20,000 nt of DNA from Gemmatimonadota bacterium (lineage in GTDB: Bacteria; JBHIER01; G020348925): assembly GCA_020348925.1 (NCBI GenBank), contig CP070758.1, forward strand, positions 543,481 to 563,480, given 5' to 3'. Position 1 is the first letter of the stretch. Every line of letters starts with the position of its first letter. The position numbers were made by a program, and so were the translations under genes. The notes beneath the pieces were generated by a model. That model was not told the origin of the DNA and searched no databases. It was given only the letters and a program-made list of their open reading frames with translations. Shown here in pieces: positions 1-17,882 of the stretch.

Positions 1-788
1 TCGAAACCGTGTTGGATGTGCTGTGTCAGCATTTTAGGATCATCAGGGTGCAGGAAGTTTCTCAGGAAGTTCATCCCGATGAGGCCTTTGCGGCGGATAA
101 TCTCCGTGGCTATCTCATCGGAGAGATTGCGATCGTGATCGTACACGGCCCTGAAATTGGAGTGGCTGGCGATGACGGGGATGTTCAGACCTTTCCTGTC
201 GATGTAGTCGAGTATGTCGTGGGCCAGGGTGGTGCTGGTATGGGACAGGTCCACGGCGATACGCCTGCCATCGAGATAATCCATCAGAACTTTGCCGTCG
301 TCTTTGAGGCCGGACTTCGAACTATTGCCACCGCCGAAGCGATTTTCACCATGATGCGTGAGTGAGAGATACAACAGGCGTTCGGTTTTCTGAAGTATCT
401 GCTCCAATCGAGTGAAGGTCTGTTCCAATGGCTCGTCTTCCTCGCAGAGCCCGGAAACATTCTCAATGGCGGCGAGGATTCCGGTTTTTTTCGAACCAAG
501 AGCTCCGTGCAATTGCTTTGGGCCGGCAAGAGGTGTGAAGAACTGGTTCTCATCCCGGAGCAGTTGTCGGAATATCTCGGCTTGTTTTCTGGCCAGGTCC
601 GCACTCCCCTTTTCTGTAGATGTATATATGGCCAAAACTTGCAGCTTGACGTTGCCCTCCTGCAGGTGGGGAATGGCACAGCCGATATCCTCTTTGTTCG
701 CAGGATGAGCGCCTTTGACGCTGGCGAGGTAGACAAGCAGGTCGCAGTGCATGTCGAAAATCGGATGAGCGTCTCTATCGGGGATCAT
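1..788 (-). CDS. Membrane dipeptidase (peptidase M19, amidohydrolase fold), 3' end runs off the window
   Basis: Not in the ORF track. Manual translation from ATG 788 gives MIPDRDAHPIFDMHCDLL...AIENVSG...SLTHHGENRFGGG...VDLSHTS...IASHSNFRAV..HDRNLSDE, which matches M19 metal-ligand motifs. ATGA overlap with the upstream stop at 785-788. Confidence 0.9.
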   Translation of the reverse strand, partial: MIPDRDAHPIFDMHCDLLVYLASVKGAHPANKEDIGCAIPHLQEGNVKLQVLAIYTSTEKGSADLARKQAEIFRQLLRDENQFFTPLAGPKQLHGALGSKKTGILAAIENVSGLCEEDEPLEQTFTRLEQILQKTERLLYLSLTHHGENRFGGGNSSKSGLKDDGKVLMDYLDGRRIAVDLSHTSTTLAHDILDYIDRKGLNIPVIASHSNFRAVYDHDRNLSDEIATEIIRRKGLIGMNFLRNFLHPDDPKMLTQHIQHGF

Positions 789-1417
789 TTACTTGACTCC
801 ATAGTCTCAATGACTTTCTTACCCGCCACCCGGGCACTGTCAAGGACGTCGGGATAGTTTCGCACGTCTCCGGGTTTGTGAGCTCCCGGGGCAACGACGG
901 TGGCGAAGAGTTCCATCTTGAGCCAATCGAGTGCACCCTGGAACATCCCTGTGGTGTGACGGGCAGAGGTCTGCTTCGTATCCTCCAACGGTATTGCGAG
1001 GATGGCCCGTTTCCCCTTGAATGACACAATACCTCCGTGGTGGGCTCCGTACCAACGGTCGAGGAAGGTTTTGAACTGGGCTGTGGGACCGTAGTAGTAA
1101 ATCGGTGTGCCCAGAACCCAGACCTGGCTGTGCTGCATCTTCTCAAAGAGAACCTGCATGTCGTCCTGCTGCACGCAATCGCCGATTTCGTAGCAGGCAT
1201 CGCAACCCTGACAGGGCGCAATAGCGAGCTCGGTCAGGATAATCTTCTCCACCACTGCGCCCCCTTCCGCCGCCCCGGAGAGGACCTCATCCACGAGGAT
1301 TTCCGTATTCCCCCCGCGGCGCGGACTTCCCACGATACCCAAAACTCGGGTACGATCTTTGTCGCCGTTCATCAGTATCTCCTTTATTGGAGTGATAAGA
1401 TTTTCGTCGTTTGCCAT
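785..1417 (-). CDS. Flavodoxin-fold iron-sulfur flavoprotein / NADPH-dependent FMN reductase family
   Basis: GSPRRGGNT FMN-binding loop, CQGCDACYEIGDC (Cx2Cx2Cx5C) cluster motif, GTPIYY and K.FLDR motifs. Confidence 0.9.
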   Translation of the reverse strand: MANDENLITPIKEILMNGDKDRTRVLGIVGSPRRGGNTEILVDEVLSGAAEGGAVVEKIILTELAIAPCQGCDACYEIGDCVQQDDMQVLFEKMQHSQVWVLGTPIYYYGPTAQFKTFLDRWYGAHHGGIVSFKGKRAILAIPLEDTKQTSARHTTGMFQGALDWLKMELFATVVAPGAHKPGDVRNYPDVLDSARVAGKKVIETMESSK

Positions 1418-1430
1418 TCAAAAAAAATTC

Positions 1431-2204
1431 TTATTTGAGTAAAAGTAAAGTCGAGGCAAGTGTTGATGCAAGAATCAAAATTCGGTATGGCTTATCGGGG
1501 ATGGCCCGAACAATCCGGATCCCAAAATAAAAACCGCCCACAATGGCCGGTGCCATAAGGAGATCGAACGCCATGGTTTTCAGGGTTACGGTCTTCCAGA
1601 AAATGACATGCAGGGGTATTTTCGATAGGCCGACCAGAACGAAAAGGCAGGATGCAGTACCTATAAGGTTATACTTCGGAAGGCGCATGGCCAGCAGGTA
1701 GAGCCACATGAGTGGACCTCCGACATTTCCGACCATCGTAGCAAATCCTCCCGAGATACCCAACACCATAGGAAACCACCAGCCTTCGGGGACTGTGACA
1801 CTTTGCTCCCCTATATCCTGCCGTGTCATGACGGCAATTCCGGCGAATACAGTTCCAGCCAGGATTTTCTTGAAGAGATCATCGGAGATGAAATTCCCTA
1901 CGAGGAGTCCCGCCATGATCCCCAATAGAATCCACGGCATGAAGCGCACGACGTACTTCCAACGCGCATGATGGTTGTAATAATGAACGGCCAAAATATC
2001 CGCAATGATGTTTATGGGTAAGACAACCCCTGTTGATGCTCTTCCTCCAAAGAGGTTCGCCATAATGAGTACGACAAGCGAATTGAGACCCATCAATCCC
2101 GCTTTCGTAATGCCGGCAAGCATTCCACATGCGAGTGAAAAAATCCATGTCAGAGGCGAGAGATTGGACCATTCAAATGACACGGTCATCACCATTTTTG
2201 ACAC
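1431..2204 (-). CDS. Sulfite exporter TauE/SafE family membrane protein
   Basis: Multi-TM protein with G.TKAG..G, STGVVLP..I.AD and GGFATMVGNVGGP motifs. The exact start (GTG 2204 or a nearby ATG) is uncertain. Confidence 0.85.
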   Translation of the reverse strand: MSKMVMTVSFEWSNLSPLTWIFSLACGMLAGITKAGLMGLNSLVVLIMANLFGGRASTGVVLPINIIADILAVHYYNHHARWKYVVRFMPWILLGIMAGLLVGNFISDDLFKKILAGTVFAGIAVMTRQDIGEQSVTVPEGWWFPMVLGISGGFATMVGNVGGPLMWLYLLAMRLPKYNLIGTASCLFVLVGLSKIPLHVIFWKTVTLKTMAFDLLMAPAIVGGFYFGIRIVRAIPDKPYRILILASTLASTLLLLK

Positions 2205-2298: not shown

Positions 2299-2670
2299 CT
2301 ATTTTTCGGTTGAGCCCTTCCTTTTCGTTTTATCCAATTCATCCAAAACTTTGAAGACATAGCGAGCGGACCAGTCTATTACATTGCCGCCTAACGCCAA
2401 AGCGACAGCGGTCGCTTCCAATATCTCCTTTCGATCGACGCCAAGGTCAACAGCACTGTTGACGTGATACTCTATTCAGCCATAACATCCGTTGCTGATA
2501 CTTATTCCCAGAGCGATCAGCTCTTTGTATTTTTGTTTAAGAGCTCCATCCTTCAAAGCGTTCTCTTCGATCTGTGCCAGTTCACGAAATGTGCTTACAC
2601 CGCTGAGGTACATCTTGGCATTGTACTTTTTTCTTAACTGCTGAATGTCATGAATATCGTCGAACATCAT
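2299..2670 (-). CDS. Carboxymuconolactone decarboxylase/AhpD-like protein, predicted selenoprotein (Sec65 at in-frame TGA 2476-2478), 123 aa
   Basis: AAGGAGG RBS. Translation DGALKQKYKELIALGISISNGCYG-TGA-IEYHVNSAVDLGVDRKEILEATAVALALGG... stays in frame to TAG at 2299-2301. The TGA falls at the second Cys of the CxxCIxxH motif. Confidence 0.88.
2446..2463 (-). promoter_or_regulatory. Candidate bacterial SECIS hairpin
   Basis: mRNA reads UGA-AUAGAGUAUCAC-GUCAACA-GUGC-UGUUGAC: a perfect 7-bp stem starting 12 nt after the UGA, with an apical loop beginning in G. Confidence 0.75.
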
Positions 2671-2807
2671 AGCCTCCTTTCCTTGGCTCCGGCAAGAGTT
2701 GCCCCTTCATAAAGAATACCGACACGCCTGTTAAGACTCTTACCTCGATTCTCTTCAGTTTCTTTAGACAAACATAACGATTTTCATGTCACCATAATAA
2801 CCTCCTC

Positions 2808-5120
2808 TCACATTTGAAACAGATATTGCAGCTTGACGAAAAACTGCCGCGAGGTCAAACGGGTCGAGCATTCGGTTCCATCAATCCCCAGACCGTTATA
2901 TTTACAGTAGTCGTACGTCGTTCCAAAGTAGAAAAGAGAGAAAGGACTCAACCGGTAGGTCAACAGCGGGTCAACATCCCAGGTTTCATAGAAGTCGTTG
3001 TACTGTATGACCCAGCGTAATGACAGTTCCCTTGTAATTTGATAATACAGCCGTGTCCTGAAAATGGATCCTTCGAAGAGACTCTCGTCGGACTCGAGAT
3101 CGTTACTGGTCGCATATGTAAAAGAGGGTTCGAGGAGTAACCTGCGGGTCGGTCTGATGTAACCGTAGAGATCAATTTGGCTTTCCTTTCCCATGACCGG
3201 AGGGTTTTCCAGACGGGCGATCCGATGGCCGTAGTCCATTGAAAATTCCAGGGAGAGCATTTCGCTGAAATTCCTGGATGCATAGAGATTTCCATTCCAT
3301 ATGTTTTGAAACCGTATTCCTTTCAACCGCTCTGCTCTTCGTGCATATGAACAAGAGACGGTCACCTGACCTTTGAGCTGAACAGCGATCTCGCCTTTGA
3401 TCACTTCTATCTTCGGCGTGCCGTTGAAATTCCATCGTTTTCCAAAGTAGGCATTCGGCTTGATACGCTCGACGGCACTGTTCTCAAAGTAAAAAGTGTA
3501 TGTCGTCGTGAGCTCTGTCTGTCGCCAATTGTTGCTGGGGCGATAACCGAGATCGGCGCGGTACGTGGGGCTGAATTCCCAGTAGGTGGCGTCGAAATCG
3601 AGATGGCGGGAGCGCTCTTCGAGGTTGATTGTGAGAGCGTGTCCTGCGAAAGATTCACCGTCAAAAGCGGCCGTATGCGAGCCACCGTCGAAGGTGGAAT
3701 CGATCACATCATCTTGGATAAGTTCTTCGATATCCTCTGAGAGCTTCTCGTCCTCCGGCTCCATCGTGTAACTGCCAATCACCTGGCCCTGCAATCGAAA
3801 GTTCTTGTGCAGGTATATCTGACTGTCAAAGCTCGCAAGCGTACCTGAGCCGCCTCCGTCCAGGCGGCGATCGGTCACCAGAAGTCCGGCGTGAGAATCC
3901 GTGCCGAAAGTCCTTTTCATCCTGAGAACGTTTGAACAGCTTTTTCCGGCTGAAAGAAGCCCGCTGCTCTCCTCAAAGGGCAGTACTATTGGCGAGTCCT
4001 CATCGCGCGCCACCACATAGGCGTAACTCGTCTTATTCATTCGCCCCGTCATCTTCGCCGCCAACCGGGGATTGTTGATTGTCCGGGTGTAAAAGGTAAT
4101 GATCCACGTATTGAACAGGTCGCTGCCCTCCTGGAAAAAAGGCCGTCGCTCCGGGTAAAACAGGGCGAAGGTGGTATTGACGTCTATCTGGTCGGCGTCC
4201 GCTTCGACCTGACTGAAATCCGGATTCACGGTCGCTTCAACGGCGATATTAGAGGTCGGCTCGAAGGTGGCACTCATTGAAAGCTCCCCCTCGGGGTCGC
4301 CATTCTCAAATCTGAAGGGCGAATCGGCGGTTCCGCCTCCGTTCAGGGCGCCTGACTGGTAACTGATGAGGCTCGGCAGGATTTCGACACCTTTTCCCGG
4401 CTCTATGTTCCGGATCCCCTCAATGGTTCCCCACTGACACGGCCGGCAGGGCTCGTTTCGGTCGTAAGCCGCCCAGGAATATTCGCGCCAGCTCTGGCGC
4501 GGGTGAATGCGATAAAAGTCGACCTTCCAGACCTGCTCCTGCTGATTGGGAAAACGGAGGCTGGAGAAGGGGACGGCGATCTCCACCTGGTAGCCGAAAT
4601 CCGTGATCTCCCCCGCCGACTCCCAGATCACGTCGTACCCGATGTCCCAACCGCCGCTGCGCGACCACAGCCAGTCGCACTGGATCCCGTAGGGATTGGC
4701 CATAAGCTCATAGGCCCACGCGGCGTCGCCGTAGGTATCGATCAAAAGCTCGACAACGTCGTTGCCCCGCAGTTGATCCCGGTCACAGTATGTGGCCCGA
4801 ACCGCTGCCGGATCGTCGTAACAGAGAAAGGCGACGTACAGATGTTGATCGTCATAGGTTATGAGGGCTTTTGTCTCCACCGGAGGTTTCGTTTGATCAC
4901 CGGGCTCGTGTTCGGCAAAATTGTCCGCCACAGCGGCCCCATGCCAGCCGGGATCGTCCAGCCGTCCGTCGATCTTTACGATCCCAGCAGCCGGCTTTAC
5001 TTCGAGCGTGGGATTGAATACAGGAGTGAAGGTGTCACTGTTTTCAGAACTTGAGGTGAGTGACACCGTTGCTAAGAGAAACAAGGCTGCCATTACTGGA
5101 GAGATGCTTTTGCGTTTCAT
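2808..5120 (-). CDS. Secreted/outer-membrane protein with CBM9-like (DOMON) and DUF5916 domains
   Basis: Probable start MKRKSISP at 5120 behind AGGAGGAG, followed by a signal peptide. Contains IDGRLDDPGW, YDDQHLYVAF, WESAG...VEIAVPFSSLRF and ATVNPDFSQVEAD...FALFYPERRPFFQEG motifs, and a beta-barrel-like C-terminus (FFVKLQYLFQM). Confidence 0.85.
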   Translation of the reverse strand: MKRKSISPVMAALFLLATVSLTSSSENSDTFTPVFNPTLEVKPAAGIVKIDGRLDDPGWHGAAVADNFAEHEPGDQTKPPVETKALITYDDQHLYVAFLCYDDPAAVRATYCDRDQLRGNDVVELLIDTYGDAAWAYELMANPYGIQCDWLWSRSGGWDIGYDVIWESAGEITDFGYQVEIAVPFSSLRFPNQQEQVWKVDFYRIHPRQSWREYSWAAYDRNEPCRPCQWGTIEGIRNIEPGKGVEILPSLISYQSGALNGGGTADSPFRFENGDPEGELSMSATFEPTSNIAVEATVNPDFSQVEADADQIDVNTTFALFYPERRPFFQEGSDLFNTWIITFYTRTINNPRLAAKMTGRMNKTSYAYVVARDEDSPIVLPFEESSGLLSAGKSCSNVLRMKRTFGTDSHAGLLVTDRRLDGGGSGTLASFDSQIYLHKNFRLQGQVIGSYTMEPEDEKLSEDIEELIQDDVIDSTFDGGSHTAAFDGESFAGHALTINLEERSRHLDFDATYWEFSPTYRADLGYRPSNNWRQTELTTTYTFYFENSAVERIKPNAYFGKRWNFNGTPKIEVIKGEIAVQLKGQVTVSCSYARRAERLKGIRFQNIWNGNLYASRNFSEMLSLEFSMDYGHRIARLENPPVMGKESQIDLYGYIRPTRRLLLEPSFTYATSNDLESDESLFEGSIFRTRLYYQITRELSLRWVIQYNDFYETWDVDPLLTYRLSPFSLFYFGTTYDYCKYNGLGIDGTECSTRLTSRQFFVKLQYLFQM

Positions 5121-5275
5121 TTGTCTCCTCCTTGTTCTTCGGGCTTTGTTTGTCAGGCGATATACATTCGAATTTTTACGGTTCATATTGTTGCAAGTTG
5201 CAACTATTTTATTGCTTTTCACGGCAGCCGCAGTGTTGTGGCGTTGTACAGTCCTGTTGAGCTGGATATGAATTC

Positions 5276-10814: not shown

Positions 10815-11816
10815 ATGAAAGTAAGAAAAATCAGTTGCTTGCTTCTTCAATCACTCGTAATTCTATTCACTGTGTTCTCCGGGATTACCATCTTGTATGG
10901 TCAGTCATTTCATTTTGACTTTGAAGATGGTTACCAGGAATGGAAAGCGGATTTCGCTGATTATCCCGTTGGGGACAGTGCACATTGGAACCTCAACCAT
11001 TTTCATCAGGCGATGCCCGATATTGTCCCTGTTCAGAATGGACTCAGAATGGTGGGAGACAATTTTTCCGATGATCTCTTTTTCTTTATGAAAAGAAAGA
11101 TCGAAGGGTTACATCCAAACACTAAATTTCAAATCATTTTTTCGATAGACGTAGTTACGAATATGCCGCCGAACGCAATAGGTGGTTCAGATCTCATGCT
11201 GAAAGCCGGGGCCACGATCATTGAACCCAAAAAAATTGTTGTTGACGAGGATGGAATCCAGTATTACAGAATGAATATTAACAAAGATAGCCAGTCGCAG
11301 CCCGGTACGGACATGGATACGTTGGGACATGTACACCATGACGTGACAGACAACTTCGATTATCATATAGCCAACTATCAAAATGGAATGGAACCATTTG
11401 AAATCACATCGGATTCAAACGGTGAATTGTGGGTGATAATCGGGGCAGAGAGTCAATTTGAAGGTCCGGCTGAATTCTTGATAGCACATACTGAATGTAC
11501 TTTAGAGAATAGAACTTCGATAGAAGACCATGAAAAACATAAAGAAATACCTGCAGATTTTGAACTTTTCCAGAACCATCCAAATCCTTTCAATCCGCAT
11601 ACAGAGATTGCGTTCGGGTTGCCCGAAGATACTCCGATTCGATTGGTTGTTTACAATACCTTGGGACAGGAAGTGGACATACTGGTACATTCGGTCATGG
11701 AGGCCGGTCATCAAAAGGTGATGTGGGATGCTTCCAACTATGCCAGCGGGATCTATTTTTATAGACTTTTAGCTGGTGATTTTACATTCATCAGGAAAAT
11801 GATTTTGCTCAAGTGA
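10815..11816 (+). CDS. Secreted protein with C-terminal T9SS type A/FlgD-like sorting domain
   Basis: Signal peptide, N-terminal domain of unknown function (WKADFADYP, NFSDDLFFFMKRKI), C-terminal QNHPNPFNP.T.I.F.LP...YNTLGQEV...WDAS..ASGIYFYRL...KMILLK. Confidence 0.8.
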   Translation: MKVRKISCLLLQSLVILFTVFSGITILYGQSFHFDFEDGYQEWKADFADYPVGDSAHWNLNHFHQAMPDIVPVQNGLRMVGDNFSDDLFFFMKRKIEGLHPNTKFQIIFSIDVVTNMPPNAIGGSDLMLKAGATIIEPKKIVVDEDGIQYYRMNINKDSQSQPGTDMDTLGHVHHDVTDNFDYHIANYQNGMEPFEITSDSNGELWVIIGAESQFEGPAEFLIAHTECTLENRTSIEDHEKHKEIPADFELFQNHPNPFNPHTEIAFGLPEDTPIRLVVYNTLGQEVDILVHSVMEAGHQKVMWDASNYASGIYFYRLLAGDFTFIRKMILLK

Positions 11817-12013
11817 TTTCTTTCAAAATCGATTGAAACAGTATCGTTAATAATATTCCTTTTCAAGGGAAGATGTTGAATAAGGTTCGAAAAATGCTAC
11901 GATTGTATTTAGAAACAACGCTTTTCGCATAAGCATCCGGCTCCATATCTTCGGGAATCTTCTCAGGGAGATAACAACACAAATCGCTTCTGCGCAATGA
12001 GAGGAGATGTGCT

Positions 12014-13117
12014 ATGAAAAAGTGTTATATAATTGCAGGGACGATCGTTTTGTTGTTTTGTCTGAGATTTTTTGTCTCGGCACAACTGTTTGATAACGAC
12101 AGAACGAAAGGGGATGTCAATGGAGATGGCGTCGTAAATATCCTGGATGCGATACGCAGCGTGGAAATTGTCTTGGGGATCCAGTCTCCACCCAGCCAAG
12201 ATGAGCTTTGGGCTGCTGATTGCAATGGAGATGAACAGATCAATGTTCTTGATGTATTAGGCGTTGTCAATGTCGCTTTAGAGATAGGAACATGCCTTTC
12301 CTCGTGCGAGGAACTCGATTGTGACGATGGCAATCCATGTACTGAGGACTACTGTGATTCTTTACTCATTCGGTGTGTGCACAATTCGTTGCCCTCTGGA
12401 ATGTCTTGCGATGATGGTGATCCCTGTACTGAGAATGACATATGCCAGAATGGAATCTGTGTAGGAACGCCCACGGACTGCATCGATAGAGACGGGATTA
12501 CCTATCAGACGGTCATGATCGGCGATCAATGTTGGATGGCTGAAAACTTGAAGGTGACACACTACCGGAACGGCGATCCCATACCCAATGTCACTGTTGA
12601 TACAGAGTGGGCGAATTTGACAAGCGGGGCTTACTGCGATTATGACAATAATGCTGATAATGTGTCTGTGTATGGGCGACTGTACAACTGGTACGCAGTG
12701 GACGACAACCGCAATATCGCCCCCGAAGGCTGGCATGTGCCCAGCGATGATGAGTGGAAGCAGCTGGAGCTGTATCTGGGGATGAGCCAGTCGGAGGCTG
12801 ATGATACAGGATATCGTGGGACAGACCAGGGTGGCAAATTAAAGGCGACGGGGACGATTGAAGAGGGGACAGGGCAGTGGCATGCTCCAAACGCTGGAGC
12901 TACAAATGAAACCGATTTTTCCGCGATGCCTGGTGGGGCCTGTTACAGCGAGGATGGGACCTTTAATAATCTGGGTTTCCACGCCCCCTTCTGGTCTTCG
13001 ACAAAGGGCGGGAGTAACACTGCCTGGGGCCGGAGCCTGGGTTGCGTCAGTGCAGAGGTTTGCCGCAACAACGTCGATATGCAGTATGGTTTTTCCGTGC
13101 GTTGTGTGAGGGATTGA
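12014..13117 (+). CDS. Secreted protein: dockerin-I-like pair + Cys-rich CDDG.PCT repeats + Fibrobacter succinogenes major paralogous (Fib_succ_major) domain
   Basis: GDVNGDGVVNILD and ADCNGDEQINVLDV; CDDGNPCTEDYC and CDDGDPCTENDIC; YQTVMIGDQCWMAENL, YGRLYNWYAV, PEGWHVPSDDEW, FWSST and GFSVRCVRD. Confidence 0.88.
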   Translation: MKKCYIIAGTIVLLFCLRFFVSAQLFDNDRTKGDVNGDGVVNILDAIRSVEIVLGIQSPPSQDELWAADCNGDEQINVLDVLGVVNVALEIGTCLSSCEELDCDDGNPCTEDYCDSLLIRCVHNSLPSGMSCDDGDPCTENDICQNGICVGTPTDCIDRDGITYQTVMIGDQCWMAENLKVTHYRNGDPIPNVTVDTEWANLTSGAYCDYDNNADNVSVYGRLYNWYAVDDNRNIAPEGWHVPSDDEWKQLELYLGMSQSEADDTGYRGTDQGGKLKATGTIEEGTGQWHAPNAGATNETDFSAMPGGACYSEDGTFNNLGFHAPFWSSTKGGSNTAWGRSLGCVSAEVCRNNVDMQYGFSVRCVRD

Positions 13118-13914: not shown

Positions 13915-15806
13915 ATGACTAAGCACCATATAGTCCTTTGCATCGTCATCGCCCTGACACTGGCGATGGCACTTGCTTCCCTGGCTGATGTGCCGCAGCT
14001 TATCAGTTTTCAGGGCAAACTGAGTGACAATGTCGGCAATCCATTAAACGGTCACTACGAAATCACTTTTCGCATCTATAATGTCCAATCGGGAGGAACA
14101 CCCCTCTGGTCGGAGACACTGAATGTGCAGTGCGAGGATGGACTGTACAGTGTTATTCTTGGAAAGATCAGCCTCATCGCTCTCGACTTCGCCGGTCAGT
14201 ATTGGCTGGGTGTCCAGATCACAGGTGAGGGTGAGCTCTCGCCCAGGTACGAGTTAACCTCTGTTCCAGGAGCCTTCAGGGCCGCTGTGGCCGACTCTGC
14301 GGTAACATCCGCCTCAGCGGTTAACGCAGATAAAGTGGACAATAGAGATGCCGATGATTTTGCTGTCTCTGATCATCAGCACGACGATCGCTACTACACT
14401 GAGATGGAATTGAATACATCAGATGGCAACCCGCCCAATGAGGGTTCCAACCGAATGAGCTGGGATAACCTGACCGACGTACCCGCAGGTTTTGCAGATG
14501 GTACTGACGAAGTTGGTGAACCTGGTCAAAGTCTGTCTCAGGTAAGTGCAGGTACCGGCATCAACGTAACTGACCCAACGGGTCCGACAGCAACTGTGGC
14601 CCACGCGACCGATGCGTCAGCCCTGCCTAATGCCCACCACACCAAGACCACCTCTGCCTCTGAATTGAATTCGGGAACTTTGGATAACGCCCGTTTTTCG
14701 GCTTACAGCGATCTGGGTGCCGAAGGGAAGATTGGGACCGGTTCTGACCAAGTGTCAACTGGCGATCACAACCACGACGCTGATTATGTGAACGCTGGCC
14801 AGGATAATTCCATCACCAGTGGGATGATCGTAAATGGTACGATACAGCAGGCAGATGTTTCTTTCTCTATAGGAGATGGCCACTCGCTTGATGCGGCCGA
14901 CGGAGATCCGACGGATGTAGTGTATGTGGATAATACTGGGAAAGTTGGCATCGGGATAACGAATCCGTCAGAGAAATTGGATGTTGAAGGAAGTATTCGT
15001 GCAAGCGGTACTGTCAGCAGCGGAAATTCGGTGACTATTGACGGGTCAAATCACCGCATCAATTCTTCCGACACATTTGAACTATATGTGAATGGGGATC
15101 GTGCTCTTCGCATTGAATCCCAATCTGAATTTCCGACTATCATAGGGGGATTCAGTGAGAATGTCGTCAAGACAGGTGTGTGGGGTGCTGTTATTGCTGG
15201 GGGCGGAGAAATAGACAGAATCAATCAGGTAACTGATAGATATGGCACAGTGGGGGGGGGCTCCGGAAATCAGGCTGGCGACAACGAGGGAACGATAACC
15301 GACGCCATCTACGCCACCGTTGGTGGGGGCACTATCAATACAGCCAGCGGGAGTAATGCCACAGTCAGCGGGGGCAAATACAATACAGCCAGCGGGAGTG
15401 GTGCCACAGTCAGCGGGGGCGCATTCAATACAGCGGGCGGAGTTAACGCCACTGTCAGCGGGGGGCAAAGCAACATCGCCAGTAGCTACAGGGCCACGGT
15501 CGGCGGGGGAGAAAACAACGAAGCCAGCGGTTCCAGAGGCACCATTAGCGGAGGCGGTGGCAACGAAGCTGGTGGCGGTTTTTCCACCGTTGGCGGGGGT
15601 TACCACAATACAGCGAGCGGAGATTACGCTACTGTCAGTGGGGGGGATGGCAACATCGCCAGTGGCCACAGTGCCAACATCGGCGGGGGAGCAAACAACG
15701 AAGCCAGTGGTTACACCGCAACTGTTCCAGGAGGGCGAGATAACTCCGCCGTTAGGTCTTACAGTTTTGCCGCCGGCCGGCGGGCTAAGGCCAATCATGA
15801 AGGAAC
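13915..15806 (+). CDS. Large secreted fibre/adhesin-like protein with Gly-rich beta-roll repeats, truncated by the scaffold gap
   Basis: AAGGAGG RBS, signal peptide, VPQLISFQGKL...G..LWSET N-domain, H.HD.RY and GKVGIG..NP..KLDV.G motifs typical of tail-fibre-like proteins, then 15-aa repeats. The frame is open up to the Ns. Confidence 0.75.
15313..15762 (+). repeat. Ten tandem 45-bp (15-aa) coding repeats, consensus ATVSGGxxNxASGxx
   Basis: Units counted directly from ATVGGGTINTASGSN to ATVPGGRDNSAVRSY. Confidence 0.9.
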
Positions 15807-15906
15807 NNNNNNNNNNNNNNNNNNNNNNNNNNNNNNNNNNNNNNNNNNNNNNNNNNNNNNNNNNNNNNNNNNNNNNNNNNNNNNNNNNNNNNNNNNNNNN
15901 NNNNNN
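15807..15906. other. Assembly gap (100 N)
   Basis: Run of exactly 100 Ns. Confidence 1.
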
Positions 15907-17882
15907 CCTTCAAAGAGAGGAAAGCTCACATTGAGTCCCACGCTCCAATCCGTATCGTCTCTCTCTGGCAATGAGGGGATCAGGCTCAACCCGCTCTCCG
16001 AGCCGACTCCACTTCGAGAAAAAATATGATCGACTTCACCCTGGAGAGCAACAGTCGGAGCCCAAAAGCTGTTTGTGGCGGAACTCACAACACGCTGCTG
16101 AGCAGCAATGGCCGCATCCAGTGACAGGAGCTCAGGGGAATTGAGAAAACCCTCCTCAACAGCGAAGGCCCGGAACACCCGAAAGGACTGGGGGTCTCCC
16201 AAATATCGGATTAATCGCTCTTCGGCCGATAGTAAACCCGGTGCTTCAAAATCCGCCTCTTTAGTCCGGAAGGCCTCTTCGGCTGGACGGTGGAGCAGTC
16301 TATTCAAATCTATTTCTGTTAGGTTGCGCTGCGAATTGGACTCGATGACCTTTTTTCTGTTCGTAGCAATCTCGCTCTCCCATCGATAGACTTCGGCAGG
16401 CCCTGCGCTGCCAACCATCTCTCGAACCCTGGCCAACTCCAGATGAGAACGCGTCTGTTTTAAATTCTCCTTCTGGATTTGCTCAATAGTCTTCGCTTTC
16501 AAAACATTTAAATAGGCAGTAGCCGCCGACTGGATGATGTCGAGACGAAGTTGCTCCAGTTGCTGCTCTCTGGTTCTCTGCAGATTTTTTTGAATCGATA
16601 CATTGGCCCAGGCCGACTCCGAGAAAATGACTTGAGTCGCTGTGACAGATCCTGAAAGCGTCCGCTCGGCCTGCTGCCCGAAACTCGCTTCAGCTCTATC
16701 TTTGTCAATAACCAATCCTAATCCTGACACATCCACCTGGGGTAGAAGATTAGCCCAGGCACTCTTCACTTCTTGTTCTCCTGCAGCCACAACGTGTTTC
16801 TGGACCGCGAGATCGAGGTTCGCAGCAATAGCCTCCTGAACTGCTTTGTACATGTCCAGCTCTCGTTCGATTTCCACCCTCTCCTCCTTGATGACATCCG
16901 CTTCTGTTAAAACAGCCCATGGAGGGTCAACGCCGATGGCGCGAGATGTCGCTCTATTGATCGTCAGTCTCGATCGTGGGGCAAAGGACACAGGAATAGA
17001 ACCCGGCTCTTCACCGAGAAGTATTCTTTGGGTGTTGAGGGCGACCCTGCGGGCAATCTTGGGAAGTATCTCGGATTTGAGACCGGCCATAATACCCCGC
17101 TCAACCTCACTTCTGCCCAGGAAGGAAAAACTCGGAAGCTTCCGTTCGATCAAACCTGCGACCAATTTGTCAAACTCTCTTGAAGGGAGATGAGTCATTG
17201 GAATAACATAAACGGCTTCAGCGTCTTGAGGTATACTCGAAAGCGCCTGATCAACAGTCTTATCGACAGAGACAGTTTCGTATTCCAGGCTCAATGCTTC
17301 CATAACACGAGGAACATTCTTACGCGGCGCTTCTATGGCCTCATAGTACGGCCGGCTGATGAGTATGACCAACTTTCTGAAAGGAACAATCTCCAAGAAC
17401 GCTTCAATGTCTGTCTTGATCGTTGACGGTAAGGATACGTAGTTAAGATTCGTGATCCCACTCGCCCCATCCTTGAGAAGGATATCCTGAAGTTCGCGGT
17501 CGATAACAAATGGCGCGATGACCGGTTTTGGTAATTCCCCGCGACGACAGACGTCATCGGAAGCGATGACTCCCAGAGCAAGGATCAGGTCAACTTCAGA
17601 ATCGGTGAGCAATCTTTCAATAGCCTCTTGCACGCCCGCGGCTGTCCAGTCCGCCTCGAGCCGTTTTTCGCCTGGAAATCTGACATCGAATTCCCGGCGT
17701 GTCAGTTCGAGAATCTCCCTCTGGAAAAGCGTCCTGATCTCATCGTTCCGTTCCCACGGTCCGTCGATAACTACACCAATATTCACAACGGGCAAGTCCG
17801 CCAGGGTTTGCGTGTAAGGTAAAAGAACGGAACTCAACATTAAAAAGAATTTAAGTACATTTCGTCTATTCGTCATGATCAT
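15907..17882 (-). CDS. TolC-family outer membrane efflux protein with N-terminal ABC-type substrate-binding-like domain, 3' end lost in the gap
   Basis: Signal peptide. N-domain IGVVIDGPW...DLILALG...RRVALN.QRILLGE...LTIN..T.RAIG. OEP-type C-domain AVQEAIAANLDL...LLPQV...AYLNVLKA...NSPEL...WSVGLNVSFPLFE. Confidence 0.85.

Follow-up and report, generated by a model that had tools for sequence, protein, structure and literature searches.

The 20,000-nucleotide stretch of DNA analyzed here, referred to as the window, carries on its minus strand a gene that, judged by its conservation among relatives, is almost certainly a genuine selenocysteine (Sec)-decoding gene with a functional SECIS element. 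Conventional translation with table 11 yields an ORF of 64 amino acids (2476..2670, minus strand) with the C-terminus ...ISISNGCYG; past the TGA, 58 further codons, IEYHVNSAVDLG...STEK, follow in frame up to TAG 2301-2299. When TGA is read as U, the product comprises 123 residues from ATG 2670 or 122 residues from ATG 2667 and contains a single Sec. Because the Shine–Dalgarno motif is spaced 5 nt from ATG 2667 and only 2 nt from ATG 2670, and because homologs begin with MF..., the true start is probably ATG 2667; residue numbers below nevertheless count from ATG 2670. An earlier note on this DNA had proposed such a hidden frame, composed of the 64-aa ORF and 58 additional codons around the motif CYG-U-IEYH, and every item it listed is present on the minus strand. 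The practical value of recognizing the frame lies in annotation: the gene is otherwise truncated to 64 amino acids or flagged as a pseudogene. Its elements are the following:

2299..2670, minus strand: predicted selenoprotein gene, complete, ending with TAG 2301-2299; the start is ATG 2667 or, less likely, ATG 2670; single CMD/AhpD domain
2673..2678, minus strand: Shine–Dalgarno motif AGGAGG, with a gap of 2 nt to ATG 2670 and of 5 nt to ATG 2667
2521..2523, minus strand: Glu50 codon GAG, 12 residues ahead of Cys62, which is the Glu118–Cys130 spacing of M. tuberculosis AhpD; invariant in the homolog alignment
2485..2487, minus strand: Cys62 codon TGT, first residue of the CxxU motif and presumed resolving thiol; near-invariant in the homolog alignment
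2476..2478, minus strand: UGA, predicted Sec codon, codon 65 from ATG 2670 and residue 64 of 122 from ATG 2667
2464..2466, minus strand: His69 codon CAC, four residues past Sec, which is the Cys133–His137 spacing of M. tuberculosis AhpD
2446..2463, minus strand: putative SECIS hairpin with 5' arm GTCAACA (2463-2457), loop GTGC (2456-2453) and 3' arm TGTTGAC (2452-2446)

The read-through product belongs to the CMD fold family. Pfam CMD (PF02627) matches its residues 29-96 with 58.6 bits against a cut-off of 23, so the CMD domain spans the TGA, and TIGR00778 (ahpD_dom) reaches 45.2 bits, above its cut-off of 27.8; the proposal that the codons beyond the TGA complete a CMD fold is thereby borne out. 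In the PDB, the family profile matched seven solved CMD/AhpD chains, with its positions 6-116 lying on 1vke/1p8c, and in the alignments with 5dik, 1vke and 1p8c, which were identified by the depositors' molecule names, the CxxCxxxH column is in register. The active-site motif of the gene reads E50...C62-Y-G-U65-I-E-Y-H69: the Glu...CxxC...His relay is found at AhpD spacing in four of five positions, the fifth being a Gly. More specific models score below their cut-offs. The product reaches 24.2 of the required 191.95 bits with TIGR00777, the model of true AhpD, and has no ahpC neighbor; with 25.8 bits against 110 it is not a member of the GSU3128 family equivalog NF041047, and it falls equally outside the ArsM/AhpD fusion NF041537 (51 versus 510 bits) and MduS NF045649 (32.7 versus 380 bits). 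The matches to the latter three models cover the AhpD part only, the protein consisting of one domain. The arsenosugar-associated peroxidase-like model TIGR04169 gives a weak match (32 bits, cut-off 120), and none of the NCBIfam selenoprotein models reaches its cut-off on the gene product. As to a possible function as γ-carboxymuconolactone decarboxylase, the Pfam scan revealed no pca-type neighbors in the window, and redox chemistry rather than decarboxylation is what the CxxU..H motif suggests.

The encoded protein is most likely a thiol/selenol oxidoreductase that carries Sec at the position of an attacking cysteine. This reading leans on M. tuberculosis AhpD, for which a relay formed by Glu118, Cys130, His132, Cys133 and His137 is described, the equivalent of His132 in PA0269 being Tyr50, in the part of the literature available to us (PMC3141380); Cys133 of the same enzyme is reported, in the accessible part of a second study, to be exposed and to cross-link to Cys61 of AhpC (PMC6626918). 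By analogy, Sec65 would take the position of Cys133 and C62 that of Cys130. The UGA would be decoded as Sec by the SelA, SelB, SelD and tRNA-Sec of the genome, with the 7-bp hairpin (loop GUGC, 12 nt past the UGA) recruiting SelB together with Sec-tRNA(Sec), and the product would be a stand-alone CMD/AhpD-fold protein of about 122 amino acids. Catalysis could then start with an attack of the Sec65 selenolate on an oxidized partner, that is, a peroxiredoxin sulfenate or a disulfide, or directly on a hydroperoxide. The resulting adduct would be resolved by C62 under formation of an intramolecular selenenylsulfide, and the pair would finally be regenerated by a cellular thiol reductant. Since the AhpD of B. 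thailandensis is reported, in the portion of the source at hand, to rely more strongly on its first Cys (PMC6626918), the attacking residue may differ among family members. We are far less confident of a specific AhpD-like partner chemistry than of the Sec-decoding nature of the gene, and a role as AhpC reductase is only an analogy because neither ahpC nor any other conserved partner lies near the gene. On the same minus strand, the Pfam scan identified the following genes in its surroundings:

5222..2808, minus strand: DUF5916 protein
2204..1431, minus strand: TauE/SafE permease
1417..785, minus strand: FMN reductase-like flavoprotein (FMN_red)
788..3, minus strand: M19 dipeptidase

Six window neighbors were looked for beside the gene in the loci of 80 relatives and are absent there, with the exception of a cupin near one locus from Latescibacterota (L028); among the 41 loci with a TGA, no informative common neighbor emerged. 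The gene thus looks stand-alone. Elsewhere in the window, two adjoining genes for secreted proteins (10815-13117, plus strand) encode, respectively, a Por_Secre_tail sorting domain of type IX secretion and a dockerin together with a Fibrobacter succinogenes major domain. A 704-aa ORF at 13915-16029 (plus strand) has no Pfam family at E <= 1e-5, and its end overlaps an oppositely oriented OEP/ABC_sub_bind ORF of 695 aa (15795-17882).

These surroundings bear on a competing view of the function, to which we give slightly less than an even chance: the gene may encode a genuine selenoprotein that is not a peroxiredoxin reductase of the AhpD type and instead works alone or on another substrate, be it as a hydroperoxidase, as a reductase of disulfides or persulfides, or as a protein for the handling of metalloids. 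The missing ahpC-like neighbor and the lack of conserved synteny speak for it, as do the low TIGR00777 score, the weak TIGR04169 match and the fact that the closest structures, 1vke/1p8c and 5dik, are small stand-alone CMD proteins. The four relay positions kept at AhpD spacing, however, favor the AhpD-like role, and possible partners exist at a distance: nine AhpC-TSA matches occur in other parts of the genome, two of which contain an in-frame TGA and are candidate Sec peroxiredoxins (G000:C1 denotes the contig of the window's genome):

G000:C1:1520766-1521077, minus strand: TGA-containing AhpC-TSA match, possible partner
G000:C1:2673015-2673368, plus strand: TGA-containing AhpC-TSA match, possible partner

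Both views of the function presuppose that the UGA is translated, for which the codon at this column in relatives provides a first line of evidence. The genome comparison comprises 80 loci kept from 294 relatives, 41 with TGA and 39 with a Cys codon at this position. Among the 43 closest loci, 41, from several phyla, share the TGA and two (L042 and L069) have Cys; the 37 more distant ones have, without exception, a Cys embedded in CxxCxxxH. In metagenomes, the motif is present in 73 of 80 loci, 50 of them with TGA and 23 with Cys. Some metagenome and genome records are probably a single contig recorded twice, such as the metagenome locus L170 and the Latescibacterota genome locus L028, whose contigs are of equal length, and therefore the two sets are not fully independent. 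A Cys opposite the TGA, which the earlier note had suggested looking for in homologs, is consequently a regular feature of both sets. One of the metagenome Cys forms (L173) reads W-Y-G-C: its first Cys is replaced by a Trp encoded by TGG, not TGA, so that it keeps only the residue at the Sec position. Of 58 related database proteins, 12 terminate exactly at ...CYG. The alignment comprised 29 of the 58, all 12 short ones plus 17 out of 46 longer ones; in these 17 full-length proteins the column is occupied by C in 14 and by W in three. The W probably stems from a TGA translated under another code, for example code 4. Truncation by standard annotation, as predicted from the window alone, has hence befallen relatives of the gene as well.

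A quick tree was built from 77 rows, which represent the window and 76 of the 80 genome loci (the remaining four yielded fewer than 90 residues and were left out). It groups the 42 Sec forms with one Cys form (L042) at an SH-aLRT of 90, and two Cys forms from Acidobacteriota flank this group. Thermodesulfobacteriota MAGs supply the majority of the Sec forms; the rows nearest to the window are L028, L036 and L042, with weak support, and the tree is taken to indicate neither a donor nor a direction of transfer.

The frame downstream of the TGA behaves like coding sequence. Between the window and the Sec loci, the median dN/dS amounts to 0.08 downstream of the TGA (13 of 40 pairs usable) and 0.15 upstream (17 of 40), most of the 40 pairs being dS-saturated. 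In codons +11 to +30, the amino acids are conserved while synonymous sites vary freely, from which it follows that the region past the UGA is translated. It is thus highly improbable that the gene is a pseudogene in which a Cys codon, TGC or TGT, mutated to TGA and left behind a dead gene or, at most, a 64-aa fragment. TGA is indeed one base away from either Cys codon, gene callers do truncate here and in the 12 short relatives, and one Sec-form genome locus (L058) has, five codons ahead of its TGA, a further in-frame stop (...GISIS*ACYG*IEYH), which could be an assembly error or the mark of a decaying copy. A dead gene, however, is hard to reconcile with a TGA shared by 41 of the 43 close genome loci and 50 of the 73 metagenome loci, with an open downstream frame under purifying selection, and with the two findings described next, a hairpin with frozen synonymous sites after the TGA and the fact that the Sec machinery is present.

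The hairpin that follows the UGA is a perfect 7-bp helix closed by a 4-nt loop. It begins after a gap of 12 nt (2475-2464), and its loop starts 19 nt after the UGA with a G, just as the earlier note had described. Taken by itself, the folding energy is uninformative: the 66-nt region folds with -12.3 kcal/mol, which corresponds to z = 0.20 relative to shuffled sequences. Moreover, no Rfam family matched within 2200-2800 at E <= 10. Comparison between relatives is far more telling. RNAalifold, applied to 42 Sec-form segments, returned exactly the 7-bp helix as the consensus, and 98.5% of the cells are paired in the register of the hairpin, as opposed to 15-37% in most slid registers and 83% in the -3 register. 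RNA folding, which had been proposed as a check, thus backs the hairpin at the level of the consensus, whereas the single-sequence energy is not unusual. Hairpins of at least 6 bp with a loop that starts 14-25 nt past the codon are present in 41 of 42 Sec forms and in none of 39 Cys forms; the counts for distinct metagenome segments are 31 of 32 Sec forms and one of 14 Cys forms, the latter including L173, L184 and L187 with similar local amino acids. Because the Cys forms in this comparison are mostly remote in sequence, the loss of the hairpin in them is partly due to amino acid differences.

The strongest evidence for a SECIS element comes from codon usage. In a set of 41 distinct Sec-form sequences, made up of the window and 40 loci with L070 excluded, the codon entropy at hairpin codons +5 to +8 is 0.00, 0.00, 0.00 and 0.17 bits (0.04 overall), while 47 other conserved codons average 1.39 bits and none of them lies at or below 0.17. 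Where the helix does vary, pairing is kept: one pair occurs as G-C, G-U or A-U and another as U-A or U-G, and the metagenome set adds a C-G at the U-A/U-G pair (L180) as well as the wobble variants L136 and L137. In a shuffle test for covariation, the observed score is attained in 288 of 500 shuffles; the 42-sequence set contains no two-sided changes, and the test is not significant because the changes are one-sided. In the SECIS of the E. coli fdhF type, the stem-loop starts some 11-12 nt past the UGA, with a G (and U) opening a small apical loop. The hairpin described here resembles it in distance and loop start and differs from it in having neither a bulged U nor sequence similarity. With a hairpin that is conserved in Sec forms, missing from Cys forms and frozen at synonymous sites, the SECIS-like role once suggested for it would seem well founded.

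The same codon choices argue against a sequencing or assembly error at 2476-2478 that conceals a true Cys codon, an explanation we consider even less probable than a pseudogene: in the window, the hairpin codons are those typical of Sec forms and not of Cys forms, and independently assembled orthologs share both TGA and hairpin. Such an error would find some room in the fact that the only contig across the whole stretch (X1) comes from the probable source sample and is thus not independent. This contig is identical to the window in 2200-2800. Of the remaining contigs, X3 spans only 2279-2429, X5 has no match in 2200-2800, and X6, from another study, contributes a 49-nt piece over 2444-2488 that covers the TGA site and has four differences whose places are not given.

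The machinery for Sec incorporation is complete in the genome, a single contig of 5.04 Mb with 96.3% completeness. The profile scores of selA (598.8 bits), selB (396.5 bits) and selD (372 bits) all exceed the cut-offs, and the three genes lie together on one strand:

G000:C1:2516704-2521550 (2.5167-2.5216 Mb), minus strand: selD, selB, selA cluster

The selD gene carries one in-frame TGA of its own, and a tRNA-Sec scores 65.8 bits and is called tRNA-SeC with anticodon UCA by ARAGORN. Hence the search for selA, selB, selC and selD that had been proposed found selA, selB and selD as well as the tRNA-Sec, and selenium is probably inserted at this codon. A genome-wide reassignment of TGA to Trp or Gly (NCBI codes 4 or 25), for which one might invoke the W at the column in three database relatives, is as improbable as a sequencing error, given that TGA is the stop of 10 of the 15 Pfam-supported ORFs in the window and occurs in frame in none of the other 14, that selABD and tRNA-Sec are complete, and that relatives have Cys at this column, as is characteristic of Sec but not of Trp or Gly. 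The phylum of the genome is represented by two species genomes in the GTDB-232 set. In the other one (G001, 87% complete), selA is present and one CMD match is found, a Cys form; a search with this gene as the query found no ortholog there. As far as sequence can tell, this two-genome lineage would run an active Sec system, in which CMD-type selenoproteins would number at least four, alongside a Sec-containing SelD and two TGA-bearing peroxiredoxin-domain matches.

The four CMD-type genes are found among nine CMD matches in the genome: four of these, including the gene in the window, carry a TGA, in all cases at the CxxU column. In the three genes outside the window, a hairpin of 6-7 bp follows 9-14 nt past the TGA, and its loop opens with a G:

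L188:1273-2526 (G000:C1, approximately 15.27-16.53 kb), minus strand: soluble histidine kinase of 417 aa, 2x CMD + HisKA + HATPase_c
L188:785-1189, minus strand: CMD gene with the motif GCEY-U-ITVH, adjoining the kinase; TIGR01926 81.1 bits, just below the cut-off of 81.8
L189 (G000:C1:4158000-4158206), minus strand: CMD gene with the motif GCYP-U-MEHY, TGA at the CxxU column and hairpin after it

The histidine kinase has its in-frame TGA at residue 24 (GCKP-U-IDHH), and the hairpin lies 9 nt downstream. Of 107 relatives, 91 have CKPC at the TGA column and about 13 begin just past it; the gene call in the source genome likewise begins just past the column. Such starts would be expected of mis-called Sec forms, and the protein is possibly a Sec-containing redox-sensing kinase. 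The available excerpts of the 2022 and 2026 selenoproteome reviews (PMC9312934, PMC13188914) make no mention of a histidine kinase, and a full-text literature search returned nothing relevant. In 201 genomes of Latescibacterota, the phylum of L028, no Sec form of the CMD-histidine-kinase was found, the two matches both being Cys forms, and three single genomes searched for it gave kinase-domain matches only.

Taken together, these observations allow a wider reading, which we offer tentatively and regard as rather less likely than not to hold as a whole: the clade of about 120 aa with CYGU-IEYH may be a distinct selenoprotein subfamily that lies outside all models, is systematically mis-called, and spread horizontally from sulfate-reducing Thermodesulfobacteriota to other sediment phyla. 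In the present genome, it might form one arm of a four-gene CxxU CMD selenoproteome that includes a Sec sensor histidine kinase and uses selenol chemistry for redox sensing and defense.

At the level of the type, the gene fits the known CxxU AhpD/CMD selenoproteins and leaves existing knowledge of selenoproteins unaltered: it is a further case of a described type, because AhpD-like and CMD-like selenoproteins with CxxU have been published since 2005. The Sargasso Sea study of that year, in the part available, reports CxxU selenoproteins that are AhpD-like (COG2128) or contain a CMD domain (PMC1088965), and Table 2 of the GOS study from 2008 counts 299 sequences of AhpD-like 1 and 70 of AhpD-like 2 (pfam02627, CxxU) (PMC2398784). 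The type had been called known but rare in the earlier note; the first half of this statement stands, but with 299 AhpD-like 1 sequences in that GOS table the type is not rare in metagenomes. The excerpts of the two reviews list a "Distant AhpD homolog", an "AhpD-like protein", a "CMD-like protein (PF02627, CxxU)", an "AhpD-related protein" and ArsM/AhpD fusions (PMC9312934, PMC13188914). With the CMD-like or "AhpD-like 2" selenoproteins, as outlined in these excerpts, the gene has in common PF02627, a CxxU motif with Sec in second place, Cys homologs and a hairpin directly after the UGA, and the definition of a CMD-like selenoprotein, PF02627 plus a CxxU whose final residue is Sec, applies to it. 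The CYGU-IEYH clade was matched to this category by the definition given there and not by comparison in sequence with the exemplar MBW1767730.1. The GSU3128 family or "Distant AhpD homolog" (NF041047; COG0599 YurZ; CxxU) is also a small CMD-fold CxxU protein, and truncated relatives of our gene have been named "YurZ" by JGI.

Among enzymes with Cys in place of Sec, M. tuberculosis AhpD (TIGR00777), as far as it is described in the accessible text, shows the same Glu-12-Cys-x-x-Cys/Sec-x-x-x-His spacing, which puts Sec opposite Cys133; the gene product differs from it by its length of about 122 amino acids, by a Gly at the position of His132 and by the lack of an adjacent ahpC. The AhpD of 121 amino acids in 5dik and the Thermotoga maritima proteins 1vke/1p8c fall into the same length class as our protein, but carry Cys where the latter is predicted to carry Sec.
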